From positions 7,662,043-7,726,042 of the forward strand of contig CM082593.2 of the NCBI GenBank assembly GCA_040954595.2: 64,000 nucleotides of DNA. Direction: 5' to 3'. The DNA is from Balanoglossus misakiensis (taxonomy: Eukaryota > Animalia > Hemichordata). Position 1 is the first letter of the stretch. The number at the start of each line of letters is the position of its first letter. The notes beneath the pieces are model-generated. The model searched no databases. It was not told where the DNA came from and was given only the letters and a program-made list of their open reading frames with translations. Both the position numbers and the translations under genes were made by a program. Below are positions 3,001 through 48,000 of this stretch, piece by piece.

Positions 3001-5717
3001 TCAGTTGCATTTCGTATGAGGTTGCTGGCGTCATTCAAGGTCATGTCCACAGTTGACTGCCCGTTGATTTGAGTGATGACGTCATTCTCCTTGACGTCTG
3101 CTTCGGCGGCTTTGCCTGTTGATATCAACTGAAACGACCAAGTTAACGAGTAAAATTAGCGACAAACTTTATCTACAAGGAGCAAAGTTAGATGAGTTCT
3201 GAGGACGGCACTCTTGCACGGTAACCATGGTAACTGGCACAGTCTGCAACATCAGCTGCAGAATTTTGCAGATCTTATAACATAGCCTATCATTGAACAG
3301 AAGAGTAATTTACTTTTAAGAATACTGGTCAAGTTTACTTCCGATTTCAAACTTTATCTCAAACACTTTTAACGTTAAATGCTGAATTATGGCTTCCATA
3401 TAACAAGACGACGAAAAATCCCGTGGACTCTCGAAGAATATCTTTGACATTTGCAGAGTGGGGGATAATTCATAATGACATCACAAAAAACTGAACAATA
3501 TCTTGATTATATCGCATGTTTGACTACCGTTCTTTTCCCACGACCCACTTACTAGCCTTTGTTGTTTCTCAGTTTAAACTCTGTTGTATGACAAAAACAG
3601 TAAGCAATCTAACGTATACATTCTCTGTAAAATCTAAACTTTGCCACAGGGAATATCGATCTCTATTTGTCTCTTGTTTCTGTGGCAAATTTCTCATCTC
3701 ACTGGTTCTGCATGTCTCTGTGTTTCCCCTGTGCCTCAGCAAACTGTGGCCAGCCACAAGAACTGGATACACGACAACAACAGGGATGGGTGTGACTCCG
3801 AAAGTTTACAAGACAACAAACACTCCACCCCAAATGACCTCATGTCATAAATCGAAGAGATGAGGAGCCATCATTTGGTCGACAAGGAATTCTGTCCCCC
3901 AAAAAGCATTCTGCAGTGTCACTGACACTCTGATCTGGTTTAGTCAACTTACATATCGTATGATGCAGACAAATGTCATATTTCGTCTTGTAACAACAGG
4001 CTACACGAAATATGTGATCCCTTGTAAAATAGATGTCTCAGATGTCTACTCAAATTCGACTGGAAACTGTTATTAGTCGAGCAGATGGAATATCAAGACC
4101 TTATATCTGACTTCATACAGCTGTCAGTTGTCAAACTCATGGCAACTGCTTTAATTTTGTTATCAGCCACATAGCCCCCCCCCCCACTCGACAGTCAGTA
4201 ATCTCATAACACAGCTATACGTTCTTACGCGTCGGGTATTGCAAACTTTTTACGGCCGTTGGAAATTTGCTGAAAGGGGGGGGTAAGTTTGGGGTTACTG
4301 TGGTACACAGAAGGGCCGTATCTTTGGGTCTAACCGATAAATCTTCGAATTAACAATTAGTGTTATCATTGGAAACTGAATCAGGAAATCAGGAATGATC
4401 GGTTTGGTTCATGAGTTTCACTAGTCTGACAAACAATCTTGATCAATATTGAAGCAAGACACGAGTCAGTTGTTGTGTTGTTGTTGCTCTTGTTGTTGTT
4501 GTTGTTGTTGTTGTTGTTGGGAATTTGTCTATAATTCTCTACTGGTGGAGTTATCAGGCGACCCAAAGCCGTAAAAATACTCGACGTAAAAACGTCGAGT
4601 CATAAAATTGGCCTTATCGACGGACAAATCCGATGGACGTGTTAAATGTAACTGAATGACATGCCTAGGTTAGTGTAAGTATATCCAGTTACTAGCATAC
4701 TGACCACACATATGGGGTCATTGGGGTCAAGATGGCCAGCATGACAAATTTTGACAGGGAACACCTAATTGGGTGTGGGTCCAAAAGCCTGTATCGCCCC
4801 CTGCATTTGCCCAATGTTTCCCCGTGTTTCATGCAGAAAGCATATAATGATAATACAAGGCCTGGAGAATGTAAATTGTGAAACACTAATCTTTAAGAAT
4901 TTAGACGTATCGACTCTGTTAAACGATTCATTTGGGCGTCCACTATAAAGTAAGAGCTATTACAGTGATTTGTCAGATGTTTCCAATCTGGCCCATGTTG
5001 TCATAAAACGATCATTATTCTCTCGTTACCATGGTGAAATCGTGCCATGCGATTGTGATAAACATTGCAGTAAGAACGTGAAGTTAGGCTGATCAGAGAA
5101 GAAACGTGTTGTGGAACGGCAAGTGGCGTTTGATGAATGATCAACACGTAAATTAAAACAAGATTGCACTGGACTCCCGGCGAGAGAAAGTTTGTGTTTT
5201 AAACGACCTTGTTGGATCTCCTATCGAACTTTTAAAGGCACGAGACGTTTGTTAGTATGTTGCATTGTTTTCCAAATCGCGTTCACATAACCCCGTGCGG
5301 TATACATGTAATATCAACCAGCGTGGGTTTCCATTGTTCGGACATTGGGGTTCGAATTGATGTAATCCATGCCCGAGTGTAGTCGTTGACTGCACTCACT
5401 GGTCGGCCGCTATAAAATCCATTTTTAAGACGAAAGAACATGAAAGCTGATACAACAAACAAAAATCTTGTTTTTGTGCAAGTTTTCGTTAACTTATATT
5501 ATACTTCAAGTGTTGAATCTTAACTTTCTTTGACTCTGACGCAGGGGAGTACTTCCATCTTTTGGACACTTTCTCGAAAGCTGAAGACGCGTTTGCGCAA
5601 ATGATCAAAATAGACCCTTACCCTACAGACGCTGAGAGGCGCTCCCTGGTCGACGCCGCCGGTTACACGAAACCCCCACGGCCCTGGACCTGTCAGTTTC
5701 ACCCGCAACTCCATCAT
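1..5717 (-). CDS. PDZ protein of the ALP/Enigma (Zasp/PDLIM) family, paralog A; 3' end lies beyond the left window edge
   Basis: Exon 5717-5622 (MMELRVKLTGPGPWGFRVTGGVDQGAPLSVCR, donor GTAAGG). Exon 3128-2980 (LISTGKAAEADVKENDVITQINGQSTVDMTLNDASNLIRNATDLGLTLTR, tttcag acceptor, GTAATA donor). Exon 1968-<1 (ttccag acceptor, frame open to the edge, low-complexity S/R/Y/G-rich). PWGFR-x-x-GG and the phase-0/phase-2 split of the PDZ are typical of PDLIM genes. Confidence 0.85.
4468..4519. repeat. (GTT)n microsatellite
   Basis: Read directly. Confidence 0.9.
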
Positions 5718-6663
5718 GGTATCCTCTGTGATCTTTGTCGTGGCACACAGGTGAGCGACAGAGGGGACAGTCGGCGATTTTGCGAGCGAAAGCCTGTAGA
5801 GGGAGATGGGAGGGAGATTAACGCGTGAATAACAGACGGGCGTAAACACGCATGCGCACCTCATACTGATATACTAGTTACTTCTTCTGTGGCAACTGTT
5901 TCAAACGTCAGGAATAAAGATTCCTGGTCATGATCATTGTACGTTTAAATCTCTTCGTTGTTGCGGTCGTTGGGATTTTGGCGACCAGTCCATTGTGACA
6001 ATTTCAAAGTCACTAATCGACCGTGCTAATTGGACATGTCCACAGCTTTTAAAAAGACTATTGCTTCTAACGCTTCTGTAACAGTTCTGTCGCCTTTAAC
6101 ACAGTATAGCAGCCCTATTTTAGGACATGTACTCAAACTTCACACATTGCTGTACTAAACATTACCTCTCAGACTCAGCTTTTATGAAATATGTGTAATG
6201 ACCCCAGGCTAATACTCCTAAGGGCTGTAACAGCTGGCTATATGCACACCCAAAACCGAAATACAACCCCAGCTGAAGTTTTAGCCAGTTGAAGGGCAGA
6301 CGATACAAATTGTAATTTTACACCAGATTAGAGAATACCGCATATCGGTAAATAAATATCACATGACGTTCAATCAACACGATTGATTGTCATCTGTATA
6401 TAATCATTCATAATATTTATTGTTCAGATGACGTCCCTTTTCAGCCAAATTGTTAATATGAGACCGTTCTCTACGTTCTGTATTCTCCAATCCCATTTCA
6501 GTATGCAAGCCAGCTATGGATGACTGTGTTTTGTTTGTGTAGTTCGTCACAAGATATAAAAAGGGAGAAAAATAAAAGAGTCATCGAAACGGCAAATTAA
6601 ATCACGCAGCTTTGTAGTTACAATTAGTTTACATTTGGACATTAAACATTCAATCGTGCCTTG

Positions 6664-13918: not shown

Positions 13919-16900
13919 TCAAAAACTCGATGTAGAAATTTGTCTTCTGACTGGATGACCACACTTGCAGTAGACAACAGGGCTTCCAAGTGATGAAATT
14001 TCTGTTTTTAGGGGGCAGTTACCGCACTGATACTTTTTCAACTCTGTTACATCAAAAGCATTGCAGCCATTTTGAAAGTTGAAACCAACAAAGAATTCCA
14101 CACGTGTGTGTTCAAATCTCCTTCCATGAAGACTGCCTGCTCTTGGAACAAAGAAGCATTTGATGGTTTCAACGCCCTTCAACTTGCCAATGTCCATGTC
14201 AATTTCACCTGATGTACTTGTCTGACTTTTTCTTATTGTACCAGTCTGTCTGGAAAGAAGGGAGCGCACTTTATCACTCTCTTTCCAAGATCGGGAATCA
14301 TAGTTCCATTCGCCCAGTTCAAATTTATGAACAAGACGACGAATACCACTTCTTGATTCCACACCAAGCCATTCATTAGTACGACGTGGTTTGCTAACAA
14401 ACCGTTTTGCCCTTTCTAAAAGGTCCTTAAATCTCAAAGATTCAGCAAAACATTCTCTGGAACCTGACTGACCTTTGCTACCTAGTGCAAGCACAGTTAG
14501 CAATACATAACAGTAGTAGATTGCATAGGGTGAGTTAAACCTATCATGCCACAGCCGAACTCTCCTCAGTACTTCTTCTATTGCATAGACTTTTGACACC
14601 AGTTTGTGTCTTACAGCATGAAGCCATTCTTTCATATCTTCATCAATTGTTTTGACTGGTATACCTCTATCAAACACATCCTCCATATTTTCCTCATACA
14701 AAGAAATGATGTCTTCTAAATCACCCAGTTCGCTTACATTATCCATGTGGAGTTGAGCTCTTGTCTGCACATTCCTGTTGTATTTTATCCTGTATGCTGC
14801 AATTTTGCCCCTCCTCCCATTAATGGAACTTGTGTCATACCATGAACATAATGCTAGATTAACATCCTCGAACAAGACGTAATACCAATCTCGACATTTG
14901 AAAAATTGTTCGCTTACAGGTAATCCATCATAGCATTCTCGCAGAAGCATATCAATAGCTGAGAGTGATTCCTCAACAAACGAATCTACACAAGCTCCTT
15001 TCACAAAAGTGTGATATCCACCTTCAAAATTCTTCTCAATGAACTCAAGCAATTGGAGCCTTACTTCCATTTCATGAACATATGAGACTTCATCTTCGAA
15101 ACCCTCTTTGGTGTACTCTCTACACTTCTGAAATGCATCGCACGCTATCTTTGTCAAGTGAATGGACTCACTAACCAATCCTTCCAAGTCACTGTCTTTC
15201 TGAAAATTACTGGTTGTCCCCAATCTGCCAATTAACTTTGACAGCTCTCGCACAAAGACCAGGCCAAGCATGTCATATATACGTGTTAACTGAACATCCT
15301 TTAAGCCTTCATCTGAGCATGCAGAGCTCTCACTTGAATCCAGACCAGATGCCCCGCGGTGGCTTGCATGCTTACTACATTCCTCCAGCCTGATTTTAAT
15401 GGCTTCATACATAAGCTCCTTTGCTTTTTGAAAGTCCTCTCTCTCATTGGCATAGAACCTGCCAAGATGAGCAAGTGAACTGGGATCTTTCGGAAAGTTT
15501 TGTGACAAGAGGCTGAGTACATGTAGTCTTTCAGTGAACGGGGGTTTGGAGACAATATCCATAATAATTCGTGAATAAGTCGAACGCTTGAAGTGACTTA
15601 TTTGCCCACTGTAGTGAGTTTCTCTGTTGTTGCGGAAGAAGAAAGTGGCTCTCATTATGTTCATTATTTCAGGAGATATTGCCTGAATTTTGTCATGCCT
15701 ACATCCTGCTTCTTCAATAAACTGACATGCAAAGTTCTCAAGACCCTTCCTAGCATCCAATGAAAGTGATACTGAACTTTCTCTTTTATGCTCACTTGGG
15801 CAAAGAATTTGTTCTAATATTTCTTTAGCCACAGCATGCAGATTAATTCTCCAACCATTCTCAGTTTCACATACAAACTTCTTGGCCTTAAACGGAAGCT
15901 TTACCACAGACTTTTCACTGACTTCCAGTATTCTACAGAAAAACTGCCCTGGAATATGCATTTGGCCATAGTAATACACAAATGCCAGATATCCTATGAC
16001 CCGTTGCCATGCTGTCAATTCTTTGGATGGGTCAATATTCAGGTACCCTGCAACATACGACTGTGTGCCTCTAAATTCATAGTCATATGCAGTCAATCCA
16101 AATTCATACACGCAATGGGGATTTCTTCCCTGTGTCACATCAGTCAAGAGCTCCTTCAACCCTAGTTTTGCTTTCCGTGGACAATTTCCAGAAAATACTT
16201 TCTCAAGACATATTGCTTCGTTGCCACTAACTTCATCTTTAAGCCATACCTTATTACCCTGGACTGCCTTTGTAATGGGACCAACATATCGTTGGACATA
16301 GAGAATGACAACTGGTACTTCTCTTGAGCATACATTCAACAACCGTGTCACGCCAGAGATATCCTTGTAAATAAGGCTGTCTATGAGGACAAGCACTGGT
16401 AAGTAGGTTTTATCGTGGAGCCAACTGATTCTTTGAGCAACCTCAGCCATCATAACTTCTGAGGATTCAGTAGTAACACAGACACATGGGCAGATTCTTT
16501 CTAAATGTATGTCCCATAGCAACCTTCTTCCAACAGTGGTACCCCCAGACCCTGGAGCATGGTATAGTGAGCTAACAAGTGACCTGCCTTTCCTGATATT
16601 GTCTTGAACAAGGTATTTCAGCTTGGAATATATCTCTCTTTCTATATCAAAAAGATGTAGTTTGACCTCATACCACGGTAAAAAACCTCCCCTGAGGAAT
16701 TCTTTCCCCAAATCTTCCTCATTTACGCTTGCGGACTTGTGATCATAGTCCAAGTATAAGACATCAAAGAATTCTTTCAGCCAGGCAGCATCTTTGGGGG
16801 CAATCTGTGTCTCAATCATCTGCTCTTCCATGAGTGCGGGTAGTTTAAACAGGCCCCCCTGCTTTTCATCTTTCAGTTCTTCCCACAATCTTAGACAGAG

Positions 16901-19900
16901 ATACTCAAATGGAATGTCATGTACGGATTCCTGTGGAACCTCTAGGTATTCAAAGTTGCGTTGTAGCATAGGTAATGCTTTACTAGACAATGAATCCTTA
17001 CTGTAACAAAACACCGACTTCAGAGCTGACATCCTCTCATCCAATTTCTCCAAAATGATTTTTAGACATGGCAGTAACATTTCAGATGAATACCACAATA
17101 CAACCACTGTCACAGGCTTTCTCCTGTGGGTAAATTCTGCTAACTTCTGACAATGTTGTTCAATCAATATGCCAATGGCTTTTCGCCATTCTCGCTCGCT
17201 AGTAGGGTTTCCTTCACGTGTATTGGAACCATTGACAAAGCACCACTCAGTTGCTTTATCAGATAACTCTTTCGGGTGATCATTACAATTTGAAATGTAA
17301 AGACTTCTTTTGTTCCTAAGTGGTTCTTCACAAACGGAAAACAATCCACTCTCACGACTTTCAGGGTCTAAGTCAAACACCTTTACCCATGGTATATTAC
17401 TAAGGGCAGCAACATATGGTGTCTCAATAGAACACGGGCCTGTTATCAAACAATATGCCCTGCCATCTTCAAAGTTATCTACACTTTCCATAAATTTTCC
17501 CCAAATATCAGATTTTATGCCAACATCTAAAGCAAACCCTGATGGACAGCCCTTTGTAAACCATGAATACACTTTCTGATTCTCCTCGGGGGATTTGGCA
17601 ACTTTGATCCCCGATCTAGAATCTCTGTAGAATACATCATTCAGTTCCCACAATCTATTACGATGACATTTTGTGGAATAAATCGGTGCTGTTGATGTAT
17701 GCGAGTTTGAAATTATGATCACCCCTACAGTCTTGCCATCTACCTGCTTTTCAATGTATTTGAAGGTTGGCCTTTCATTGAAAAAGCTGTCATTGAACAA
17801 GCTTTGGTAATATTCATCATCTGTAGACTGACTTAGACCAAGCATATCATGTGGTGGATGGGACTTTTCAACAACACCAAGAATAATGTAACTTATAGCA
17901 TGATTTGGAGTGTTCCAAAAGCTAACAAGATCTCTCATGAATTCCCCATCTTCATCCGTACGGTAACTGCCAGCTTTGTACTGTATATAGCTATTTTCAC
18001 AGTGTCTAAGCAAATGAGAAAATGTTTCCTCACATGTCAGATTGTAGTCTTCCAGTATGTTAATTACATCCTCATTTGATTCATCTTTCAATAACTGGCT
18101 TTCATCAACCCTTTGTGGCACATTTAAGGAGACATTATGTGCTCTTATACAAATCGGGCCTTGTTGTTGAACAGATATGCCCATACATGCCTGTTGCTCT
18201 GTGCTAGTTGTAGGAACATATGCAAATTGTTCAACCACACTTTGACCCTTCATGCCATACTGGTTTTTAATCTTAACTGCTGATGATGGTGCTTTTGCCA
18301 GTTTTTGCTTTCTCGTATATCTCTTCCAAGCATATTTGGGTTTACCATTGCTACCAATATTTGATTTTGACTTTTTACTATACATCCCCTTTCCCGTCCC
18401 GCCCCTGCCTTTTCTATATGAAGGAATTTTACTTTGCATCACTTTCCCTTCCAATTTGTGACTTTTAGGAATGCCAGATTTATGAGGTTTCTGTTTTCGC
18501 ACAACCTCCCATTCACAAGAGTCTTTATCAGAATCAGAATCATCTTCAAATTTGGAACTATCAACACTTATACTACAGTTATCCTCAGATTCCTCATCTC
18601 TGTAATCTGTATCATCAGAATCATTCTCTTCAATGGAAAAATCTTCCGTTTCACTATACACATGAGATGTATTTTGGGATTCTATTGCAGGCATTTTCTT
18701 TTTTTGACGTCGGTATAATGCATGAACTACAACGCTTTGCCCTCTTTGAGCCAAAGTAAACCACTTTGGATGTTTTTCAAGAAAAGACTTCATACCCCCA
18801 TATCCGTGATCTTTAAACTTCTGTTTGTCTTTACCACTGCACTCTTTGTCAAAACTTGTTGCAAGTTCATTCAGGGTCATTGGTTTTGCATCTGGACGAT
18901 TTTCTGGGTTAACCAAGGAGTGAAGCAGCAGTAACAAATCTCCTTCTGTCATACCCGAAGATTTCCTCTGTCGAGCATCTGGAAATCCCACAACAATAGC
19001 TGAATTTTAGATTACACAGTCTCATTGAAACTCGGCCACAAATGGTGGACAATAGCATATTGCAATTGAAAGAGTATACGTGATGTACATATATATATAT
19101 TCATCCACCCTGAAGTAATTATTGTTACTCCTACGTAACGATTGCCCCTTTCATATTTTTTTTATGTTTGTAGTCACAAATTTAAAAAATATTTGGGAGC
19201 TGTTCTTAAAGAGTATTGACTTCAAAGAAATGTTTCAGTTTTACCATCATTTTGTTTTTTTTATGTTATTTTAAAGGAGTATGACTCACCCTATAGTCAG
19301 TTAGTTATAAAACATATTCAATGAAGAATGTGCAACAAAATCAATTTTCCTGAACATTTGTACAGCTAGCAAACAAGCTCTGTTTTCAAGAGAGCTTAAG
19401 TTGCCTTCTGAAAGAGGCACTTGGGATTACAATTGTGGCTTATGAATCTACTTGAAAACAAAATTCATCTTACCTGATTGATGACTAGCAGCTGCATCAG
19501 CTTGTCCAGCACTTTGTACAATGGTATTGTGGTCACCAACTTGAACATTTTCACAGTCTTGTATGACAAACATGGGTAGTTTTAACTGAGCACTTACTGC
19601 AAGACAAATTTAAAGTGCATCATGTAGAAGATAAATTGTTTCCATCTTGGGAATATCCTTCCAATATTACAGTTAAAGGTATATGGTCACGTATGGAAAT
19701 TTAGCTACAGACAGTTATCATGGCAAATTGAGATCTAGACAATTCTAGATTTTCATTGGGTGGCACACACGAATAAAAGAGAGCCATCATATGTTCTTTA
19801 GAAAACTTAAATACGCCATTTTGCCATTTATGGACATATTTAAATTGGAGGTGACTATGTACCTTTAACACATCCTTTATTCATTCAGCAATGTCACCAA

Positions 19901-22574
19901 TTACCAAGGACTTCTGCAATATGCAACAACAATCTACTGAATTAAACTTTTTACCAAAGTGTAAACAGCAATAATATGTTGCGATTACATTCTTCAAGTT
20001 GACGTAAACAGATACCAGACCAACTAAGTAGACCTTAGGGGTACTACACAGAGAAAGTTACATCAGTAAAGCAGTAAATACCTGTGGGCAAACTTGAACC
20101 GGTAGTCTCTTGATATCTTTCTCCATCTGCAGCGTCTAAAAAAATAAACAATAAACATTCCTTTCAATGAAAATCTATGAAAAACATTCCTTTCATACTT
20201 TAAATACCATGAACGCCATAAAATCAATGAATTTATAAATTAAACCACTTGTATTTACTGCTTTGTAACACCTATCGAAATCGACCACACCAAAATTTTA
20301 AGACAATGACAGTTACCTGCTACTTGTAGGTTATAGATTCCAAAGTTTTTAAAATTTGATTACATTAAAACAATTCCCCACTTATTAAATATCAACAACA
20401 GTTTATGATTCAGACTATAAAGCTTCAAAATTCAAGAGTGTTTAAATTTACAAATTACCTTTATCTGCACCACCTTTTAATCCGATATGATACCACACAT
20501 TGCTTTCAGCAATGACTTGTTGCTCTTTCAGTGTCAGTCCATCAACCAGCTGTGACAATCAAAACACAGGAAATATAGTTTTTTTCTTTATTGTGAAACT
20601 TTGCACATCAGAAAGATGACAAAATTGTTTTTAGAAATAATTCATAGGGAAAATACTATAATTATATTAATTGCTGTTATTGAGATTCACTGACCTTTTT
20701 GCCATTGCCAAGGAAAAAACTTCCACTCACAGAAACCTGTCGCTCATATTTCACAAGTTTCCGCAGACAGCTGGCAGAATCTTGTGGTTTTACAGAAACT
20801 GGAAAAATTCCACCTGGTAAGCCATGCAAATACAGTGTAAATGTCCTGCAAGGAGAAAAATCATCTTGCTGTGAGGAACGTTTCCCATACTGTTGCAAGT
20901 GAAGATAAGTCTTGGTAATTCTTACATTTTGATGATATACATGTATTATGAAGTAAAAGAAAGTATGCGTTAGATACAGCCCACATGAACTAATTATTCC
21001 CAACAACTGCTAGAAAATACTCAGTTTACTGTAAAAGTGCTGTCATTTTCTCCTAAAATAGGACAAGGATATCTAAAGAAAATTTCCTAATGAACAGACT
21101 TTGTTATATTGCTATAACACATTAAGAGTTATCTTACCTACAATTGACACTGCTGTCATGGTGATTATTCTCAACCATACACATAATACAAATTTCTCCT
21201 TTGGATTTAATAATCACAATTATTCATGCAGGCATTACTAAAATATAAATAAAAACAAACAACAATGAAATCAATGACACATATAACCATTTTATGAAGT
21301 GTACATGCTCTTGAATTTGAGTGGTAACCCTGTGGTATTCACATATGAAATGTTTAAGTACACTTCTGTAATTTGGAAATTACAATCTGGAAAATGCAGT
21401 ATTTATAAATTCTGCAAGTCTTATGTGTGATTAGGAGGGTCAATATAAATCAATTACCACGCCCCCTCAGGTTGTAAAGCTCTGGCAAACCGCACATAAT
21501 CCCCTACATTAACGCTCTCTGGGGTTACACTGACTCACGGTCACTCCACGCAGTGATTGACCACAGGGGGTGCTCCCTCCATGCTTTTATTGTGTGTTTG
21601 TTTGTTTTGTTGTCGTAATTGATTGGCATAATAAACAAATACATATTTGCCCGGAGAGGTTTCCCCAGACCCTCTTTCTGGAGTGCCCAACGGAAGAAGC
21701 AGAGGGCTCTGGGTAACCGAGACTATATCCCAAACATAATTTGCATTTGTGACCTCAGTAACCGCTCAATGACCTTACAAGAACAAGCCAATTATTAACA
21801 TAAAACTGATTTGAACACACATACATTATTCGGCCAACTGAACACACACAATTCGAGAATCTAGTAAAGTTAATTTCAGACTACATTAAGTTAATTCTAA
21901 CACATTAAAATTATTATAACATAGTTTTGACGAGAGCGGGCCTTTCAATTTAAATGTTACTATGTTGATTTGAAAAAAATGACGCAATGGCTTATGACGC
22001 AGCTCGCAGCCATGCAATAGTTGTGGAGTTGGGGTAGGATTTAGGCTAAGGATCGGCTTAAATTACCCTGACCCCGACCCTAACCATTCTATCCGACCCT
22101 AACCTTATTATTAGAACTGATTTGATGCCTGATTATACCCTTGCCTAACGTACCTAATAAACCCTGGGTATAAATCCCACGGACCGCGCCACAATTGCTA
22201 GCTAGGGACAAACCGAAAGTAAAAAAAAAGTGTTTGAAACACTTCTACGTAACATAATGCACCAAGATTCTGATCTATGTCGTTTGCATATAATCGTTGG
22301 CAACGAGCACATCCATTTTATCTCTGTATCAACATGAAACATCGGAAATCATTTTTTATGGTTGACCAAGGCAACTTGTGTGAGTAATATGGTATAAATT
22401 GGAAAGCAGACATGCGCACAAATAAAGGGCCCGCTATCCGGGATACGTCACGTACAATGTCGAGTACACTGCAATTGGACCTTTTTGTGTGCCATGGGCA
22501 CAGTCAAAAGCTCCAGACACATAAAAGACTGAGACTTACCTCCGCAAGCACACGGACGCCACTATTTCCGCCAT
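13919..22574 (-). CDS. SAMD9-family STAND NTPase with N-terminal ubiquitin-like, RHIM-like and LOTUS-like modules (~1844 aa)
   Basis: Exons 22574-22540, 20845-20695, 20549-20459, 20135-20082, 19596-19474 and 18999-13919. All introns are GT-AG with compatible phases (2,0,1,1,1); total 5535 nt. SAMD9-type motifs in the last exon: ENSYIQYK...SFWNT...YIILGV (AlbA_2/Schlafen-like), IPWVKVFDLDPES (SIR2-like), LYHAPGSGGTTVGRRLLWDI (Lys-less Walker A, cf. SAMD9 LYHHPGCGGTT), LPVLVLID (Walker B), AHLGRFY (TPR region), VEFFVGFNFQNGCNAFDV (OB-fold end). The last exon is secure; the first exon is less certain. Confidence 0.85.
19673..19868. mobile_element. TTAA-flanked MITE family B (AGGTATA..GTCAC termini), in an intron of the SAMD9-like gene
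   Basis: TTAAAGGTATATGGTCAC ... GTGACTATGTACCTTTAA. Homologous copies at 57183-57375 (inverted) and ~9335-9500; degenerate copy at ~44510-44630. Confidence 0.8.
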
Positions 22575-22825: not shown

Positions 22826-25800
22826 CACTTTCACTGCGTAGTTAATATATGCTAATGTATTCCTGTGTGTAGTTTCCTATGGTAAATTTAACTAATAAAC
22901 AATGTTTTACTTTACCCTCTCTATCTCTTGTAATATGAAAGTATATGCAACGATATTTCCAGCAAGTATATTTTATAAGACAACCAACATAATAAAACTG
23001 AAAAATGGTCACATGACCATTAATTGGTCATGTGACACTGGCAGCCATAATGGATTTCTGTCGAAATATGGTAAAAACAACAGATATTGTAATATAAGTG
23101 ACTGAAATACTGTATTTAATTCATTGTATCACAGCTGACAGACAAACATAGTCAAAAACAACTTCCCCCTGTATAAAAGGGAATAACAAGTGACTTTTGA
23201 GCAAGAAATTTGATCAAATTTATTAATGGACCATAAAAACAATTATCAAATTAAAGCTGCAAGCAGCATTGTCGGGCCCAAGCGCTGATCTTGAATTATA
23301 TATGCACAGTATGAATGAGAAGAAACATAATTTTCTATCGGGTGTATTATCTCATGACATAACAAGGGTGTATGTATTTTTGCTGCTGAAATAGGGTAAA
23401 GTAGGTCAAAGGTCACCTGAGGTCATCCAACATTTGGGCAAAAATTTTTGACCCATGCTGGGCCATGTCCAACAAAAACCAAAACTCTAGCTCTATTGGT
23501 TCGCGTGTAATTAGGTATGTGCATATTTAATGAGGTCAGCAGGTGTCACAGGTGAGCCAAAAATTTGGCTTTACATTTAGGTCCCATCCTGCCAAATGCC
23601 AAGGCTGTATCTGCTCTGGATGTTGAGATATGCGAAAGTAGGTCAAAGGTCACCAGAGGTCACCCAACATTTGGGCAAAAAATTTTGATCCCATACAGGT
23701 CCATGTCCAACAAAAACCAAACCTCTAGCTCTATTGGTTCGCCTGTAATTAGCTATGCACATAATTAATGAGGTAAGCAGAGGTCAAAGGGGTCATGGAA
23801 AGTAGCAAAATATTTTGATCACACACTTATCCACATGCATCAAAAACCAAACATCTAGCCCTATAGGTTAGCCTGGAATTAGATATGCAGAAATAATAAC
23901 ATGTGAAAAGTAGGTCAAAGGTCATGTGAAAAATCGCCAAAAATTTGTAACATATTTTAGTCACATGACGATTGATATCCATACAAAGAATTTCTATGCT
24001 ATCAATGTTTAGAGTAGAAAAAGGAATTTCAATTTTTCAATGCTTTTTACAAAATCCAATATGGCCGCCATAATCTTCCACCAATCACAATGTTCTTTGC
24101 AAACTTGATAGACAGCAGTGTAGTGACCATACTCGCCGAATCTTGTGACTCAGTTATCGCCCGTTCTGGAGAAGAAGATTTGGGGAGTTTTACTATGGTT
24201 TTTCGAAAATCCAATATGGCCGCCATAATCTTCGACCAATCAAAATGATCTTCGCAAACTTGATAGACCTCAGTTAGGTGACCCCATACCCCAAACCGCG
24301 TGACTCTGTTATCGCCGGTTCTGGAGAAGAAGATTTTTGAAATTTTGACCAGATTTCAGAAAAACAACTGTAGCAAAAAAACTGCAACATTGACAGCAAA
24401 ATATCCAATTACAAAAATGATGGGCAGAAGGTACACTACCAGCACGCCAAATCTGAAGTAAATCTGACTTGTAGTTTCTGAGATCTGAGATTTGCATTTT
24501 TTCAGAAAATCCAATATGGCCGCCATGTCACGTGACTAATTAAAAATTCATGGGTTCAATGCACGACTACTCATTGACCTTGACCACTGTAGCAAGTTTG
24601 AGAACTGTACCTGCAGCGGTGTCTGAGATCTAGAGCGATAAAAAATGGACAGGAGAATAAAGAAAGAAAGAAAGAAAGAATTAAAGCTGCGAGCAGCATT
24701 GTCGGGCCCAAGCGCTGATCTTGAATTATATATGCACAGTATGAATGAGAAGAAACAGAATTTTCTATCGGATGTATTATCTCATGACATAACAAGGATG
24801 TGTGTATTTTTGCTGCTGAATTAGGGTGAAGCAGGTCAAAGGTCATCTGAGGTCACCCAGCATTTGGGCAATTTTTTTTATCCATACTGGTCCATGTCCA
24901 ACAAAAACCAAAACTCTAGCTCTATTGGTTCGCCTGTAATTAGGTATGTACATATTTAATGAGGTCAGCAGGTGTTACAGGTGACCCAAAAATGTGGCTT
25001 TACATTTTGGTCCCATCCTACCAAATGCCATGGCTGTATCTGCTCTGGATGCTGAGATATGCGAAAGTAGGTCAAAGGTCACCAGAGGTTACCCAACATT
25101 TGGGCAAAAAATTTTGATCCCATACTGGTCCATGTCCAACAAAAACAAAACCTCTAGCTCTATTGGTTCGCCTGTAATTAGTTATGCACATAATTAATGA
25201 GGTCAGCAGAGGTCAAAGGGGTCATGAAAAGTAGCAAAATATTTTGAGCACACACTAATCCACATGCATCAAAAACCAAACGTCTAGCCCTATAGGTTAG
25301 CCTGGAATTAGATATGCAGAAATAATAACGCGTGATAAGTAGGTCAAAGGTCATGTGAAAAATCGCCAAAAAATTGTAACATATTTTAGTCACCTGACGA
25401 TTGATATCCATAAAAAGAATTTGTATGCTATGAATTTTTAGACTAGAAAAAGGAATTTCAATTTGTCACTGCTTTTTACAAAATCCAATATGGCCGCCAT
25501 AATCTTCGACCAATCACAATGCTCTTTGCGAACTTGATAGACATCAGTGTAGTGACCATACTCCCCGAATCTTGCGACTCAGTCATCACCCGTTCTGGAG
25601 AAGAAGATTTTTGCAGTTTTACTATGGTTTTTCGAAAATCCAATATGGCCGCCATAATCTTCGACCAATCACAATGATCTTCGCAAACTTGATAGATATC
25701 AGTTAGGTGACCACATACCCCAAACCCCGTTACTCGGTTATCACTGGTTCTGAAGAAGAAGATTTTTGAAATTTAAGCCAGATTTCAGAAAAAAAATTGT

Positions 25801-28800
25801 AGCAAAAAAACTGCAACTTTTACAGCATAATTTCCGATTACAAAAATGATGGGCAGAAGGTAGTCTACCGGCATGCCAAATTTGAAGTCGATCTGACTTG
25901 TAGTTTCTGAGATCTGAGATTTGCATTTTTTTCAGAAAATCCAATATGGCCGCCAGGTCACGTGACTAATTAAGTATTCACAAGTCACTGCACATCTACT
26001 CATTGACCTTGACCACTGTAGCAAGTTTGAGCAGTGTACCTGCAGTAGTTTCAGAGATCTCGTTGGCCGAAGAATTGACAGGAGAATAAAGAAAGAAAGA
26101 AAGAAAGAAAGAATTAAAGCTGCAAGCAGCATTGTCCGGGCCCAAGCTCTATTATCTGATCTGATATTAGATATGCACATAATTAATGAGTAGAAACATA
26201 ATGCTCTGTTTTATCCCATGAAATATCAAGGTTATATCTATGTTTGGTGTTGATATAGTGTAAAGTAGGTCAAAGGTCTCCCAGGGGTCACCCACAATTT
26301 GGGCAGAAAATTTTGACCCATAGTGGTCCATGTCCAACAAAAACCAGACCTCTAGCCCTTTTGGTTAGCCTGGAATTAGGTATGCACATAAATAATGAGT
26401 TAAGCAGGTGTCACAGGTGATCCAAAACTTTGGCTTTTCATTATGGCCCCATACCTCCAAACGCCAAGGCTGTATCTGCTGTGGATGTCGAGATATGCAA
26501 AAGTAGGTCAAAGGTCACCCAAGGTCACCCAACATTTGGGCAAAATATTTTGACCCCATACTGGTTCATGTATAACAAAAACAAAACCTCAAGGTCTATT
26601 GGTTCATCATTAATTAGGTATGTACATATTTAATGAGGTCAGCAGAGGTCAAAGGGGTCATGAGAAGTAGCAAAATTTTTTGATCACATACAAATCCACA
26701 TACATCAAAAACCAAACTTATAGCCCTATTGGTTAGCCTGGAATTAGATATGCAGAAAAATGATGCGTCAAAAGTAGGTCAAAGGTCATTGCCAAAATTA
26801 CCAAAATATTTATAGCTTATTCTTGTCATATGATGATTCATATCCATAAAAAGAATATCTGTGCTATCAATTATTAGGCTAGAAAGGGAATTTTTACTTT
26901 TTAATCATTTTTCACAAAATCCAATATGGCCGCCATAATCTTCGACCAATCACATTCATCTTCGCAAACTTGATAGACATCTGTTTAATGACCATACACA
27001 CCAAATCTTGTGACTCGGTTATCGCCGGTTCTTGAGTAGAAGATTTTTCAAATTTTACTAGGGTTTTTCGAAAATCCAATATGGCCGCCATAATCTTGGA
27101 CCAATCACTATGATCTTCGCAAACTTGATAGACATCAGTTAGGTGACCACATACCCCAAACCCCGTGTCTCGGTTATCACCGGTTCTGGAGAAGAAGATT
27201 TTTGAAATTTAGGCCAGATTTCAGAAAAAAAATTGTAGCAAAAAAACGGCAACTTTGTCAGCATAATTTCCAATTACAAAAATGATGGGCAGAAGGTAGT
27301 CTACCAGCATGCCAAATTTGAAGTCGATCTGACTTGTAGTTTCTGAGATCTGAGATTTGCATTTTTTCAGAAAATCCAAGATGGCCGCCATGTCACGTGA
27401 CTAATTAAGTATTCACAAGTCACTGCACATCTACTCATTGACCTTGACCACTGTAGCAAGTTTGAGAACTGTACCTGCAGCGGTGTTTGAGATCTAGAGC
27501 GATAAAGAATGGAACCAAGAATAAAGAAAGAAAGAAAGACAGATTAAAGCTGCAAGCAGCATTGTCCGGGCCCAAGCTCTATTATCTGATCTGATGCTGA
27601 TATAGTGTTAAGTAGGTCAAAGGTCACCCGAGGTCACCCAACATTTGGGCAAAATATTTTGACCCGATACTGGTCCATGTATAACAAAAACAAAACCTCT
27701 AGGTCTATTGGTTCATCTGTAATTAGGTATGTGCATATTTAATGAGGTCAGCAGAGGTCAAAGGGGTCATGAAAAGTAGCAAAAATTTTTGATCACATAC
27801 AAATCCACATACATCAAAAACCAAAATGATAGCCTTAAAGGTTAGCCTGAAATTAGATATGCAGAAAAATGATGCGTCAAAAGTAGGTCAAAGGTCATTG
27901 CCAAAATTACCAAAATATTTATAGCTTATTCTTGGCATATGATGATTCATATCCATAAAAAGAATTTCTGTGCTATCAATTTTTAGGCTAGAAAGGGAAT
28001 TTTTACTTTTTAATTGTTTTTCACAAAATCCAATATGGCCGCCATATTCTTCGACCAATCACATTCCTCTTCGCAAACTTGATAGACATCTGTTTAATGA
28101 CCACACACACCAAATCTTGTGACTCAGTTATCGCCGGTTCTTGAGAAGAAGATTTTTGAAATTTTACTAGGTTTTTCGAAAATCCAATATGGCCGCCATA
28201 ATCTTCGACCAATCACAATGATCTTCGCAAACATGATAGACCTCAGTTTGGTGACCACATACCCCAAACCGCGTGACTCGGTTATCGCCGGTTCTGGAGA
28301 AGAAGATTTTTGAAATTTTGACCAGATTTCAGAAAAACAACTGTAGCAAAAAAACTGCAACATTGACAGCATAATTTCCAATTACAAAAATGATGGGCAG
28401 AAGATAGTCTACCTGCACGCCAAATTTGAAGTCGATCTGACTTGTAGTTTCTGAGATCTGAGATTTGCATTTTTTCAGAAAATCCAAGATGGCCGCCAGG
28501 TCACGTGACTAATTAAAAATTCAAGGGTTCAATGCACGACTACTCATTGACCTTGACCACTGTAGCAAGTTTGAGAAGTGTACCTGCAGCAGTGTCTGAG
28601 ATCTAGAGCGACAAAGAATTGACATAAGAATAAAGAAAGAAAGACTGAAAAATTCCAACGAAACCAATAGGGCCCAAGCCTGGCTTGGCTTGGGCCCTAA
28701 TCATGCCCACCATTTACATGTATACATGTTTAAAATCTGAGAAAGAAATATAGATTATTAGTGAAAAGGTGAATGATTGAACTTGTGAATAAATAATAAT

Positions 28801-33839: not shown

Positions 33840-34741
33840 CTAAAGTTCTTGACCATACTGGTCGTCGTCTTGCATGTACATCTGCAGAACCCTGAAGGAT
33901 CTCGACTGAGAACCGGGATTGGAGTAGCCATGGTAATGCATTTCACCGCCTGGTTGCTGACCAATGTATCGGGAGCTCGCTTCGCCGGGGCGGGGTGTTG
34001 GCCTCTTGTCGTGGACGGTCTGGTACACAGATGATCCGTGGTCCACGAAACCTCGGTTACCCCTGAAAGTGTTCAGATGTTTGCCCTGAATGCATATCTT
34101 AGAAAACAAAACAAATAAACAAGCAAGAAAACAAACAAACAAACAAACAAACAAACACTCAGACAGACAGACAGACAGACAGGTAATCGAACTTAGCGCT
34201 AAAGCTTCACAACATTCTTGAAAACGTAATCCGGTAATATGGTAGATTAAACTTAAGAAATAACACAGGTCATTCGAAAAAGACTATAAAGAAGGATTAT
34301 TTGGTAATATGGCAGATGTCAATGCGCTCCCGTGATTTTCATGTTTAATTAATGAAACTATGTGAAAACAGCGCAGCTAGCTCACCCTCCAATAACGCCT
34401 GCCTGCCCAGGCTCAACCATATCAGACGTCTGTTCCTGGAACGCGTCGGCAACATTGCCAGCTGAATATAAACTCACTGGAGAGTTATACTGCAGATGGA
34501 CAACTTGAGCTGTGGGACTGAGATGTTCCTAGTGAAGGAAATAAGAAAATGACAACATAGATTCTGTGTTCCCATTGGATCAACGCTCAATCAGACGGTG
34601 AACCTCAAGCACAAGATGTATGCAATTCACGCCTAAGAGACAATAAACTATATGAAGTTGTGTTGTAATTAGAATACATCTGATGGAGATCAGTCCGTAT
34701 GTGATGTCTGTATGGAAGACAGACAGACAGACAGCGGACAA

Positions 34742-34772
<31 letters not shown>

Positions 34773-37700
34773 ACACATGATTGTCATTTTCTATTCCATC
34801 ACTCACATGAGTAACTGTAAAAACATCTTTTTTGTTTAGCTATAGCATATTAGAATAGCTAATTTAGCTGTAATTTAAGATGCCGCTAATTCAAAATTTG
34901 CTTACCATGGTTGACTGAGATGTCTTCATAGCTAAATTAAAAACCCACCAATGTACTGAGAATCCAAATTCGCCAAGAAAGCATGCAATTAATTCAAAGT
35001 GTTTTTACATTATTTTGTCTTTGTTGATTTATCACCTCCGAACCCTCACCTTTTCAGGGGTAACTTCTTCAGCGCCGTGTGTTGGATCAATGCGACGATA
35101 ATAACTGGGCATCTTCGATGGCTGGTGGTGTGGGTGATACTGCGGTTCTTTGGTGATCTCCACTCTCGGGGAATTGTCTCTGGATGTGGATCCGGCTGGT
35201 CGGAACTGGGGCGATCTGGCCGACGTTGGGTCGTATCCATAGGTGAAGGGTTTCTTGTCCTTTTGCTGGTTCGGACTGGTGACCGGTCTGAAGGGTGGAG
35301 TCGTTGCTGGCAATACTTGGCGTGGTTTGGGCTGTCCGAACGGCGTTGGTGGCGAGTAGTTGTCCGCGTAGGAGGGAGAGTGACCAGTCGGGCGAACTGG
35401 TTGGTACGTTTTAGGGGTGTAGTGTTGTTGGGGTGGTGGGGGTGGTGGAGGTGGTGGTGGAACGTATTGCTGTTGTTGCTGGTATTGGGGTTGTGGCGCC
35501 ACCTCTGGTGAAGCTGTCGGAGACTGGCCCTTTTTGTCGTCTGTCCCGATTCTGCAAAATTTCAAATAAAAGTGACGTTGACTCGTCTCGCGGCCTCAAG
35601 TCGGACCCAAACTTCGAGATAAAGTTTCAACTCTGACCGGGCAATTGTTCTGGTCAGTAAATGTTCTCGCCTCATTTCAGTCAAAGGGTTCAAGAGAGCT
35701 GTTTCAGAATATAATGTACATATTTAAATCTGAATGAGTTAAATAATAAACGGATGCGGCACCCGTTAATTATTTAACATATTCAGATAGGTACATCCAC
35801 AATCAGAGGTTGATAATATGTTTGTTTATACATGGACCGTTCTAATTCAGTCAGTAAAATCACTAAAATAATCTTAAAAATTGGCAAAACAATTGCGCCA
35901 ATCTCATGACCAACAAGAATACTTGCCTCATCAGTGAAAGAAAGAGATCGCCTTTGATTTGACGAATTCTCTCTTGAGCTTGACTCAGTGTCATATCAAA
36001 AGTAGGTGTTCCATTGATTGCTGTTAGGAGGTCGTCTTTCTTAATATCAGCTTTGGCAGCTTTGCCACCGGCTGTGGTCTGTCGGGAGAATAAATAGAAA
36101 TGTTTGTTTTGAGAACATTTACTGTGTACGGTTAGCCTGATGATACCACACCCACAACGACCATGGATAAAAGGGCAGCGAGAGAAAGACTTTGTCCCTT
36201 TAAACCACAGCTGGACACTTTTCTTTATATGCCACCGTGACATCCGTACATTTTTTCACAGTGGTGTCTGCCAATAGCGCCATCAAGTCAAACATTGCCG
36301 GAATGTTACATAGATCGATGGTCGCTGGGCCCGCCGGTGGCGCCTGCGCAGCACCAGCAGACTCTTTTTGGGAGAGAGAGAGAGCGAAGGACCATAATGC
36401 ATTTCCCCAAGGTTTAAAATTTAAAATTTCCTTTCGTGCGTGCGTGCGTGTGCGTGTGTGTCTGTATGTATTTGTCTATCCTCCGTCTTGCATGCAGTGT
36501 ATGACGTTAAACCACACTCCACATTCTTACAGTTTAATAAATGCCAAACTCATTTAAGTAATAGGAAGGAATGTTGTCTTACTAGTATTTGCTGATAAGT
36601 GAGTGTCTCATACGTCACGTCGTGTTTTCTGTTCTCAAGACATCATATGCAGAATTATATTACTGGTTTATACTGGAATTTTATTTCATTTTGCACTTAA
36701 TTATTAAGATCACAGAACGGAATATTTGAAGCATAATACTGTGGTTTAATTTCAGTCGAGAAGACTTCGCCGATGATAAGAGCTAAATAGTGAAAGTAGG
36801 GAGTTTGTGTAGTAGCTCAATGGGGTAATCCAATGGATGTGTGTGTATCTCTTAGCTAAATGTTTTATAAATATTTGTGTAAGTTTTATTACAAGTCGAA
36901 ACTACTTCTATTAAAAAACAAAATCAACTGTTATCCATTTCAAGGATATTCACATACCACGAATAAATATATATTCCAAATCAACACAACCGCTTGTTCA
37001 ATCATCCGGGTCTTATACTAGAATATTTTTAACATGGTCAGGGATGTAGACGCATAATTCGTAAGTGACTTTGCAGTTGTTGTAATGTCGGAGAATTTCA
37101 AAAGATTTATTGACAGATGGAGAACTGGATATGACAGGTGCTTGGGACAACAGCTGTTCAGTACAGATAATTCCGGTCTTACTTGCATTTTGGAGATTTT
37201 CCAGCAAATTAAGAGACTTCACTTACTGTAGAGACATGCATTGTCGGCTTAATAATTAAAGAAAGTAGCATTTTTGACAATCTACTTAGCAGCGTTATAC
37301 CAAGATCTACCTCGTGACCTTCACGTTGCCAATAGGGCACACTGTCCTAACAGTGAGCCAGATAATCGCGTCACTGACTGATACGTTTATACATCAATGC
37401 TTGGCAGGGCCTCATTTCTGGTGGCCTTTACAAAACATGACGCCGCTGGCGAATATTTTACGGCCTACACCCACAAACGGGTATTAAAAAGCAACACGCC
37501 GTTGGGTATTTTCTGCTTTGATACGAAGGATCGCTGCTATGTCATGCGTCATGACGTAAAGATCGTGACTGACCGCAACATTCTTGCATTAAAACACTCG
37601 TCTTTCAGTCAACAGACAAGTGCGTGCGAGGGGCGACGGATATCGCCTTATGACAAGAACACAGCCATAGAATTGTGAATCTGAGACCGGCAAATCGTTG

Positions 37701-45086: not shown

Positions 45087-48000
45087 ATGACGGAACAACT
45101 CTTCGCCGTAACCCTTGAGTGTCCACCGCCGTGGGGATTTCGATTGGCCGGTGGCATTGATTTCAACCTGCCGCTGACTATCTCTCGGGTGAGTGCATCA
45201 AGTATTGTATATTTATATTGGGTATCGAATTGTGCCATGCTTTAGTTTTCTGCCTGTTTTAATAGAAATAAGACAGTCGCCGATCGTCGTATACTAAATC
45301 TGTAATATATCGACGTCCCGTGATGAGTCGATCGCACAAACGGCGAATTACTGGGTCATCGGGGGTTGGGAAGGGGTGGTTGCGGAAGCGATGATCATCT
45401 CCGCGTCGTCTGGTTGCACACAAAGTGGGAGTGGTCCCCTAAAATGCAAATTATTACAGAACTTGTCAACAGCTGAAGTCATACAAGTAACCCATTGTTT
45501 TCGGGTAAACTCACTGAACAGTCCACAAAGAGACTCACTGTGAGTTTCGTTTGGACTTTTCTCGACTTTCTGACTCGACTATCCAGTCAGTACTAAGTTT
45601 GGTGGACTTTTTTTAACCAACTGTGGCTGGAGATGATGACCCAGCCTGTTGTTAAACTTGCTATCAGCTGTTTGACGGTGATCCATTCCCCATCACTGGG
45701 CCTCCCCAGCTCCAATGCCCTTCGAGCTCACATGAATTGTCACTCTCCCAAGTCTACTTTTTTCCCGTCTAGACCACATACACTTTAAACGCGAACAGGT
45801 GGATTTTTAATATACGGAATGCACGAAAACTAGCATGTATGTTCCACATTTTAATTAAACGGAAAGGGTATGGCCTATAGTCTATGAGGATTGTCATGTC
45901 GCCCACATACTTCCCATTCTTGAGTGCATTCTTCAAGACTTTGTGTTCTTGAAGACTGTATGCATGAAAACCAGCACGTATGAAAGAAGTGGCCCTCTCA
46001 TGATTAAATCTCTTGGATAAACTACTAAGAAATGTGAAGGAAAAAACGTTCAATAAGTAGCAGGGAAGAGATTAGGGAATTATGTCGTCTGCTAGGGTAA
46101 CAGTTGTAATTAATCCTCTTTATTTAGAGCTGATTAGCACTCCAAAATAAGCACTACAACCTTTTCCTTGACCAACCATATGCAGCTTTAGTCATCTCAG
46201 AGTCCGGATAACCTAAAATTTTAGTAGTATTTTTTTTACTTATGTTACTTTTGGCCAAAAAAAATAATTGTGGGATTCTATAAATAACCAGACCTACCCT
46301 ATTTTAAACCTGCCAGTCGACCCTAACCTTTTCATAGGTATCATGGTATGTCAATGTGGAATTTAAAAAAACATAATTTCTACAATACAAATACTACAAT
46401 GAAATGCCATTGATAATTGCACGCATGTTTTGATAAATAAAAAAATATATAAATAAATAAATAAATAGACAAAAAATGACCCCCAAAAATTATTATCCTA
46501 CAGTACTGACCTATTGTATTTCTCAAAAGCATATTGTTGGAGCAACAGAATTATTTGTTTAGTTTTATTTTTGGGGGTAATTGTGTGTGATATTCCTGCA
46601 CTCTTACCCAAATATGTAACTATTATATACATATGGCAAAAAAGAGAGAATTAAAAAAAAGAACATTTTCATGTGCATAACTCATTTTTACCAGGGTGTG
46701 GGTCTGGAATAAAAATAATTGATTTGGTTTGTGTTCATCCTTAATTATAAGTATCTGACTGGAGGCTGGTGACACAGACAGTCGCTTAGTGTTTTTACAA
46801 AGCCTTGCATTGTCTGTGCCAAAACTCTCAACTGTGAGAGTGTCAGCTGGGATCAGGTTAGCTCAACAGGTCCACATATTGACTGTAATCCTACACAATC
46901 TTTCTATGGTTCGTAGCTGTCGTCATTCACTAAACTCAGACTGTGCCAAAATAAACTGTTCTCAGCCTGAACCAATCACACTGAAGATATAGTGAAACTG
47001 AAAAGCTTATCAAAAGGACCTTGAGAAAAATTCCTTGCCACCACATTATACAGTATACAGAATTAATTTTCACTGGCATTTAATTTCACAATTTTGAACA
47101 CAACATTATATAGATCTACATGTACATATTGACGAGCTATGACATCAGGTTGTTTCCTGAATATGGCCAGTCAATATGTGATTTATAATAACACACCTTT
47201 TGGAATTTATGTTCAGAAGGTGGATGACATGGTACCATGTCATCCACCTTCTATGGTACCACTCAAGAAGTTTGAGTACAAGCAAACTTTGCTGCCCAGA
47301 CATTATTTAAGTCGTGCCATGGGAGCTTATTTGTTTATATCAGAAACTATGCCTGTACTGGAATTTTAAACTAATCCTGAATAGACCTGGGGAATTGATT
47401 TTGCCTTCACATGGATTTTTAACTTTGATTAGTGAGGATTATTGTGGTAAATATGTCTCCTGGCATTTTTGACCTCAAATGTCAGGGCTGGAAAAAAAAA
47501 TAGTTCTGGGGTGCTTCCAAATGTTTCTTACTTGATCAAGTGCGGACTGTGTCATTGACAATGACACAATTTTTTTCTCTCTTCTGCAGGTAACACCAGG
47601 TGGTAAGGCATCTTTGTCTCATATTCTACCGAATGATGTGGTGCTGCGTATTGATGGAGAAGACACAAGTCACATGACACATCTAGATGCACAGAACAAA
47701 ATAAAGAATTGCATGGGAGAATTAAGTCTTACTCTGTCAAGGTTGGTTATTCTCTGTTCAACTTCTGTCTGTGCTGGTGTTTATGCTTTAACCCTTTCAC
47801 CCCCATGGTTTGGTCCAAATCCATTGTTTTCTATGGTAAAGTTGGGACCTCTATTAATCTATAGAGGGAACTGGGGGTGAAAGGTTTAATGTACTAATTT
47901 CTACAGAGTTTATCCAATAGCTCTTTTCTCAGTGGTGCAGAGCTTTGAATGGAAGAATTGTTTGATGAGAATAGATGCATGGATTATGCATATTCATATT

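Follow-up and report, generated by a model that had tools for sequence, protein, structure and literature searches.

The 123-nucleotide (nt) exon described here lies on the minus strand, at 19596-19474, of a 64,000 nt stretch of the genome of the hemichordate Balanoglossus misakiensis (assembly GCA_040954595.2, contig CM082593.2, forward-strand positions 7,662,043 to 7,726,042), which we call the window and whose numbering is used throughout. Its translation, SAQLKLPMFVIQDCENVQVGDHNTIVQSAGQADAAASHQS, contains the tetrad VQVG (19546-19535, minus strand), which agrees with the (V/I)Q(V/I)G core that defines a RHIM (PMC12119088). Judged from sequence comparison the RHIM-like motif is real and old, and the exon is part of a predicted SAMD9-family STAND protein, a host gene that an earlier sequence-only reading of the window had left unnamed. 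We consider it fairly probable that this gene encodes an amyloid-signalling and likely nuclease-dead variant of SAMD9, in which the RHIM-like motif would serve as the signal output in place of the Schlafen nuclease. RHIM motifs drive cell-death signalling in mammals, and to our knowledge only a few animal RHIM proteins have been characterised.

The RHIM-like exon and its relatives

Splicing was predicted by means of consensus sites and colinearity with a protein of Ptychodera flava. In this model the exon has an acceptor reading ...gtcttgcag before TA and a donor reading gtaaga after CAG, and phase 1 introns flank it on either side, as they do the 54 nt exon at 20135-20082. The exon, its splice sites, its 1-1 phase, the VQVG coordinates and the phase of the 54 nt neighbour are all borne out by re-reading as the sequence-only reading had given them, and the RIPK3 segment that it quoted is present in the PDB alignment. 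The bare tetrad [VI]Q[VI]G is common, with five occurrences in the six frames of the window and 2.9 expected per simulated 64 kb; the full RHIM pattern used in the earlier reading occurs in none of 60 simulated windows.

The likeness to a RHIM now has support beyond what that reading had shown, from a Pfam score, PDB matches, position-specific conservation and a mollusc profile. In the alignment of relatives, rows P0002-P0079 were labelled animal and rows P0080-P0121 bacterial on the basis of named neighbours, length and tree position. LOTUS is present in 52 of the 79 animal rows, with at least 35 residues before it in 26; the remaining rows begin at or after LOTUS, as would be expected if genes were called on the large exon alone. 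Nine of the 26, counting the window itself, have a strict [VI]Q[VI]G tetrad within 90 residues upstream of LOTUS, and for comparison it occurs in 1 of 404 windows taken downstream and in 1 of 540 bacterial windows, while the looser Q[IV]G is found there in 15, against 5 of 404 downstream and 3 of 540 bacterial windows of 90 residues. The earlier reading had made its case depend on conservation in orthologues, and the motif does stand just upstream of LOTUS in Ptychodera, lamprey, amphioxus, Lingula and many molluscs. Its core (residues 122-141, 19517-19576) is 68% identical to Ptychodera over 22 residues, and it is this core that is conserved between relatives while the flanks are poorly conserved. 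In oyster members P0050, P0056, P0131 and P0153, QHG or QYG replaces the QIG of the tetrad.

Position was the sole criterion for choosing 19 mollusc upstream regions, and a profile built from them was searched against 2,153 open reading frame pieces of the window and gave the 123 nt exon as its sole significant match (E 4.4e-7, next best E 0.35); the same profile also picks up the Ptychodera and lamprey motifs. The only PDB match of the exon is the RHIM of RIPK3 (E 0.59), and with a combined RHIM and LOTUS profile the top six of 15 PDB matches are RIPK3 or RIPK1 (best E 0.016). In the matches of both exon and profile, the extended pattern around the tetrad resembles RIPK1 and RIPK3. Searched across the whole library, the combined profile gave 46 matches, including further mollusc members and an amphioxus protein that runs from a ubiquitin-like (Ubl) domain through a RHIM-like stretch and LOTUS to SAM. 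Lingula XP_013415988 contains a CARD, a RHIM-like stretch and LOTUS in a published alignment, where the RHIM-like stretch and LOTUS are unannotated.

Several observations weigh against calling the motif a RHIM outright. The comparison with the Pfam RHIM model (PF12721) that the earlier reading had proposed does yield a match, at 19.5 bits (E 7e-4), which falls half a bit below the curated 20-bit cut-off, and we therefore file the motif as RHIM-like and not as a proven RHIM. Pfam RHIM appears at E<=1 in just 4 of 30 and 2 of 32 relatives, and is absent from the 25 Pfam families listed for a third set of 39. Individual PDB E-values are weak, several members have degenerate tetrads (SQIG, VMIG, VIVG, QHG), and the amphioxus motifs hardly score with the mollusc profile. 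Because the rows are related, enrichment p-values are inflated, and a relaxed pattern present in 20 of the 26 rows was chosen after the sequences had been seen. Longer RHIM proteins were not found at E<=10 with the 40-residue exon peptide as query (one candidate, weak evidence), and of 632 candidates the Ptychodera head matched itself alone. A short motif with a Pfam score under the cut-off and weak PDB matches could also be a chance look-alike, a hydrophobic linker with no amyloid role, but this is hardly credible in view of the position-specific conservation in deuterostomes and molluscs and the profile match across phyla.

The host gene and its SAMD9-like family

The host gene has six predicted coding exons (21184-13919, minus strand) and would encode 1,841 residues, in the predicted order ubiquitin-like, RHIM-like, LOTUS, Schlafen/AlbA_2, SIR2-like, NTPase, TPR and OB. 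The first coding stretch (21138-21184), with an ATG at 21184 and a phase-2 donor, is predicted and aligns weakly to the N-terminus of Ptychodera; further upstream, the sequence offers a candidate exon end with its donor at 22540 (22540-22574), a putative 5' untranslated region or alternative phase-2 first coding exon. Two exons would make up the Ubl domain, the first (20695-20845) 49% identical to Ptychodera and the second (20459-20549) 70% identical and ending in LKGG at a phase-1 donor. The head looks ubiquitin-like by way of the amphioxus homologue P0159, which matches ubiquitin at E 6e-5 (under the cut-off), and of an atlas lead scored 0.90; the window's own domain has no direct Pfam or PDB match. 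Next come the 54 nt linker exon (20082-20135), little conserved in the alignment, and the 123 nt exon (19474-19596). AlphaFold gives no confident model of this Ubl and RHIM head, and the predicted local distance difference test (pLDDT) is low there in the Ptychodera model, where the alignment is shallow.

All remaining domains are encoded by the last coding exon (13919-18978; 5,060 nt), from LOTUS through a linker, AlbA_2, SIR2-like, STAND NTPase, TPR and OB to a Cys-rich tail. The LOTUS/OST-HTH winged helix (residues 165-243, 18716-18952) is modelled with a pLDDT of 83 and finds as its best folds TDRD5 (Z 9.7, root-mean-square deviation 3.0, 76 aligned), Tejas (8.9) and TDRD7 (8.7), the top three and five of the top six being LOTUS-type domains. 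The Pfam LOTUS match is weak in the window protein and reaches E 8e-5 in relative P0164. A Z-alpha identity for this winged helix was rejected in favour of LOTUS (Z 6.7 versus 9.7). The linker between LOTUS and AlbA_2 (18700-18000, minus strand) has an acidic run and a W-x-x-V-x-R/K motif followed by basic residues, which recurs in many relatives, and by eye a beta-rich stretch before AlbA_2 is faintly like a second RHIM-like repeat.

The AlbA_2 domain (17615-17998) scores 30.2 bits in Pfam against a cut-off of 25.3, and PADLOC gives just a partial PDC-S50 match over it. Profile alignments place a SIR2-like signature stretch common to human SAMD9 at 17363-17395. In the STAND NTPase, whose Walker A to Walker B stretch lies at 16376-16564, Walker A has a His upstream of it and reads GGT where GKT would be usual; the upstream His together with GGT/S at Walker A is a SAMD9-family signature (PMC5445408). 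The protein thus agrees with a broad definition of the SAMD9 family, having an AlbA_2 domain and a SIR2-like domain followed by a STAND P-loop with this signature. TPR and OB have no Pfam match in the window protein, and the alignment of a family profile with SAMD9 extends across the TPR region and is weak at the C-terminus. The OB fold and its CxxC...CxC tail (13955-14245) are predicted from position and from weak Pfam CSD and zinc-ribbon matches in relatives, CSD being matched in 3 of 32 at E of at least 0.025. Pfam finds no SAM domain in the Ptychodera protein, nor in those window exons that were scanned.

With the last exon as query we found 141 relatives, the best of which is the Ptychodera flava protein (68% identical). 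Lamprey, amphioxus, starfish and many molluscs follow, and then presumed bacterial proteins of about 1,220 residues at 24-27% identity. Human SAMD9 structures are matched by profiles of the family at E 2e-51 and 2e-32, and SAMD9 is likewise the first match (E 2e-21) of a structural model made for the Ptychodera protein. Lingula XP_013415988, Crassostrea XP_011440496 and Branchiostoma EEN55742, all members of the clade, are already in the alignment of PMC5445408. Single-sequence scores reach E 2e-96 with the presumed bacterial proteins and 28.8 bits with human SAMD9; being far closer to the former, the animal clade is probably separate from the vertebrate SAMD9 branch. A FastTree of 95 rows (79 animal and 16 of the 42 bacterial, no vertebrate SAMD9, with long-branch warnings) has a branch with support 100 that sets the animal rows apart, and it puts the window next to Ptychodera; in it RHIM-bearing rows occur in the deuterostome and mollusc parts alike.

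The presumed bacterial proteins P0080-P0121 have an AlbA_2-SIR2-STAND-TPR-OB layout with an intact catalytic motif. Compared with human SAMD9 they are much nearer to the animal clade, which may have received its gene from bacteria in a transfer of its own. In an amphioxus hybrid, P0159, P0190 and P0191 are models of a 525-residue Ubl, RHIM-like, LOTUS and SAM protein without the NTPase. An older Branchiostoma floridae model, EEN48978.1, has the same head as P0159 and continues into the family NTPase, and the N-terminally truncated P0004 adjoins the hemichordate pair in the tree, so that P0159-type and P0004-type models may be halves of one gene; alternatively, P0159 may be a short adaptor form. 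The SAM-type SAMD9 protein of Saccoglossus (XP_006825609.1, from the supplement of PMC5445408) has an N-terminal stretch ending in GLKGGAD, as does the window Ubl, which hints that a Ubl cassette moved between two SAMD9 branches. A mollusc subgroup (P0033, P0036, P0046, P0055, P0065 and others) keeps the RHIM-like head and has apparently lost most of AlbA_2; two of these rows seem to have lost LOTUS too.

Likely nuclease loss, proposed signal output and the modular head

The catalytic motif of Schlafen domains is Ex4(E/D)xK (PMC13056530), and SAMD9 requires E184, E196, E218 and D241, with E196A abolishing cleavage (PMC10246899). The window protein departs from this motif in reading E483-x4-Q488-x-K490 (17998-17975, minus strand), with Q in place of the second catalytic acid; by residue spacing Q488 would correspond to E196 of SAMD9. 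The AlbA_2 segment could be aligned in 49 of the 79 animal rows and 37 of the 42 bacterial rows. The second acid is present in one of these 49 animal rows and in all 37 presumed bacterial rows, and the full motif in none and all 37, respectively; seven more animal rows with a located segment also lack the motif and four more were unscorable. We consider the Schlafen nuclease likely to be inactive in the window protein. The broader statement that the second acid is lost in all animal members was ruled out, as it is kept in Lingula and P0008. Counting against nuclease loss are three of the four acidic positions, which remain in the window (E483, D505, E526), the second acid of Lingula (EFK) and the first two acids of SAMD9, which are spaced 12 apart (PMC10246899). 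For these reasons nuclease loss is something we infer, perhaps not for every member.

Under the favoured explanation the SIR2-NTPase-TPR-OB core would rest in an autoinhibited state, and a pathogen cue would cause opening and oligomerisation, as in human SAMD9 (PMC13600222); on the same analogy LOTUS, OB and the degenerate AlbA_2 possibly bind RNA. Oligomerisation would cluster several RHIMs and these would nucleate a cross-beta fibril, by analogy with RIPK1/3, ZBP1 and the fungal NWD2/HET-S system (PMC4262963). A partner with a RHIM of its own, either a RIPK1-like kinase or some other adaptor, would then be drawn to the fibril, leading to NF-kB activation or cell death. The RIPK1 proteins of lamprey and zebra mussel depend on their RHIM to activate NF-kB (PMC12119088), and the SAMD9-like family has RHIM-bearing members in lamprey (P0003) and zebra mussel (P0032). 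According to the same paper RHIM-bearing RIPK1 was not found in echinoderms, a pattern matched by the two starfish rows, which lack a RHIM and have a Death-like domain, which is suggestive and a single event. Invertebrate RHIMs occupy the usual place of CARD-type domains (PMC4262963), and the Death or CARD domains in the heads of relatives agree with this.

Three points count against such an output. We know of no RHIM-bearing partner in hemichordates. Starfish and amphioxus RIPK1 are without a RHIM according to PMC11507063, which conflicts with PMC12119088 on lancelets, and the activation intermediates of human SAMD9 are dimers, higher oligomers being a model (PMC13600222). An alternative that we regard as unlikely is that the motif is an aid to self-polymerisation that replaces SAM, with RNA binding or residual cleavage by AlbA_2 and LOTUS as the output and no need of a RHIM partner. 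It would account for the absence of an identified partner, for the position of the motif, which is that of SAM in vertebrate SAMD9 (PMC5445408), and for the three of four acidic AlbA_2 residues that remain, as well as EFK in Lingula. It fits poorly with Haliotis P0033 and P0036, which are without much of AlbA_2 yet keep the RHIM, with amphioxus P0159, where RHIM-like motif and SAM occur together, and with the second acid, which is non-acidic in 48 of 49 animal rows at a position that maps by spacing to the E196 required for SAMD9 cleavage.

The motif could also act as an input or decoy, the protein being recruited to, guarding or dampening the fibrils of other RHIM proteins, host or viral. Inhibitory RHIMs exist in viruses and insects (PMC4262963), family tetrads are often degenerate and the annotation includes short RHIM-LOTUS products that have no NTPase (P0159, P0182), but the window tetrad is a canonical VQVG, and its place in the STAND protein is the effector end, where NWD2 and an amphioxus RHIM-NACHT protein have their motifs; we find this role improbable.

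The sequence-only reading had proposed that the 123 nt exon is a shuffled or skippable module. Skipping is possible as far as the frame is concerned, for removing the 123 nt in silico leaves a single open frame of 1,800 residues, and the 1-1 phase would suit a regulated cassette that switches between RHIM-plus and RHIM-less isoforms or was recently shuffled in. That it is used in this way is unsupported by annotated models: four genes with more than one isoform have nine named models between them, and all nine retain the motif (Ptychodera X1/X2, B. floridae X1/X2, amphioxus-hybrid X1-X3 and Argopecten X1/X2). The sole motif-less model, Crassostrea virginica X2, could be taken in favour of a cassette, but there the whole head is missing and the protein begins with a Met of LOTUS, a difference other than the skipping of a cassette. 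What distinguishes Ptychodera X1 from X2 is the choice of acceptor for the LOTUS exon, at the junction that comes after the RHIM in the window gene. Among the 15 of 28 oyster-like members that were listed, ten have the RHIM head joined to LOTUS, two are intron read-throughs, three are internal starts and none has a head without the motif.

The splice sites of the 123 nt exon are as consensus-like as those of its neighbours, and three successive phase-1 introns make both small exons symmetric at once. No other in-frame 1-1 candidate exon was found in the two introns that flank it. Recent shuffling is not supported because RHIM plus LOTUS is common to deuterostomes and molluscs, and taken together a regulated or recently acquired cassette seems quite improbable. 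The three relative pairs compared, read as proteins only, all imply a phase-1 intron ahead of the LOTUS exon; with the isoform models and the oyster cluster this points to RHIM plus LOTUS as an old unit and to modularity of the whole head. Relatives have heads in which Ubl, Death, CARD or HEPN accompanies the RHIM or takes its place; two starfish rows have a Death-like domain, read by eye, and no RHIM, and other rows add Death or CARD. The 123 nt exon is most likely constitutive, and its 1-1 phase most likely comes from the way in which a modular head is attached to the large exon, by an old phase-1 intron.

Neighbouring features and known systems

Elsewhere in the window there are PDLIM/ZASP-like genes on both strands, with PDZ, DUF4749 and LIM exons at 33843-36255 (minus) and 47536-58290 (plus), and a PDZ-like start at about 5520-5873 (minus), seen by eye only. 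Just upstream of the presumed promoter of the SAMD9-like gene, at about 23270-28700, lie some four long diverged repeat copies with internal units of 130 and 155 bases.

The family and the clade are known, and what is new to the literature searched is the RHIM-like motif with LOTUS in SAMD9-family proteins: no report of either in this family was found in a search that left most subscription papers outside reach, and RHIM, LOTUS, OST-HTH and ubiquitin have no mention in the part of the PMC5445408 supplements that was searched. A wider reading, which we hold only tentatively, is that of an ancient bilaterian SAMD9-like branch, still present in lamprey, in which an Avs-like bacterial tRNase sensor would have lost its nuclease by decay and been rewired to an amyloid output through the RHIM, with LOTUS as an RNA-binding domain. 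The presence of the family in molluscs, a brachiopod, hemichordates, amphioxus and lamprey makes it a candidate upstream sensor for the RHIM-dependent NF-kB activity of lamprey and zebra-mussel RIPK1. Both animals lack ZBP1 (PMC12119088), and if the reading holds the family would be a ZBP1-like entry into RIPK signalling that is older than ZBP1. It would also serve as a natural experiment on the exchange of effectors among SAMD9 proteins, nuclease versus polymerising adaptor.

Like human SAMD9 and SAMD9L (PMC5445408), the window protein has AlbA_2, SIR2-like, STAND P-loop (His, GGT) and the predicted TPR and OB in the same order. Unlike the vertebrate proteins it is without SAM, has a putative Ubl as well as RHIM-like and LOTUS parts, and carries Q as the second catalytic acid. 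The same AlbA_2-SIR2-STAND-TPR-OB layout is found in the bacterial Avs9/Schlafen anti-phage proteins (PMC12680541, PMC13056530); the presumed bacterial rows, which are Avs9-like in layout, are 24-27% identical over about 95% of the core. They differ from the window protein in keeping Ex4DxK (37 of 37) and in having LOTUS in none of 42 rows and Q[IV]G in only those 3 of 540 windows.

The window motif shares with RIPK1, RIPK3, ZBP1 and TRIF a VQVG, a hydrophobic strand before it and an Asn after it, and as in ZBP1 the RHIM is paired with a nucleic-acid-binding domain (PMC4262963). In contrast to the mammalian RHIM proteins, its host is a STAND NTPase, its winged helix is LOTUS over Z-alpha, and its amyloid formation is a prediction.

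STAND receptors with amyloid-motif signalling are established in fungi and predicted in bacteria, and one case has been predicted in amphioxus (PMC4262963, PMC7889193), the RHIM-NACHT-repeat protein BF82280 already described in PMC4262963; one of the amphioxus reading frames in that paper may conceivably belong to the SAMD9-like family of the window protein. No adjacent effector gene with a matching motif was found in the window, of whose tetrads only that of the 123 nt exon precedes N. The window NTPase is SAMD9-type rather than NACHT, and after its motif the protein continues with LOTUS and a degenerate nuclease. As in NWD2/HET-S, bacterial NLR-BASS and BF82280 (PMC4262963, PMC7889193), an amyloid-type motif forms the N-terminal effector part of a STAND protein whose repeats, here predicted, are C-terminal, and if the wider, tentative reading is right this branch would be an animal counterpart of the fungal and bacterial NLR amyloid signalosomes.

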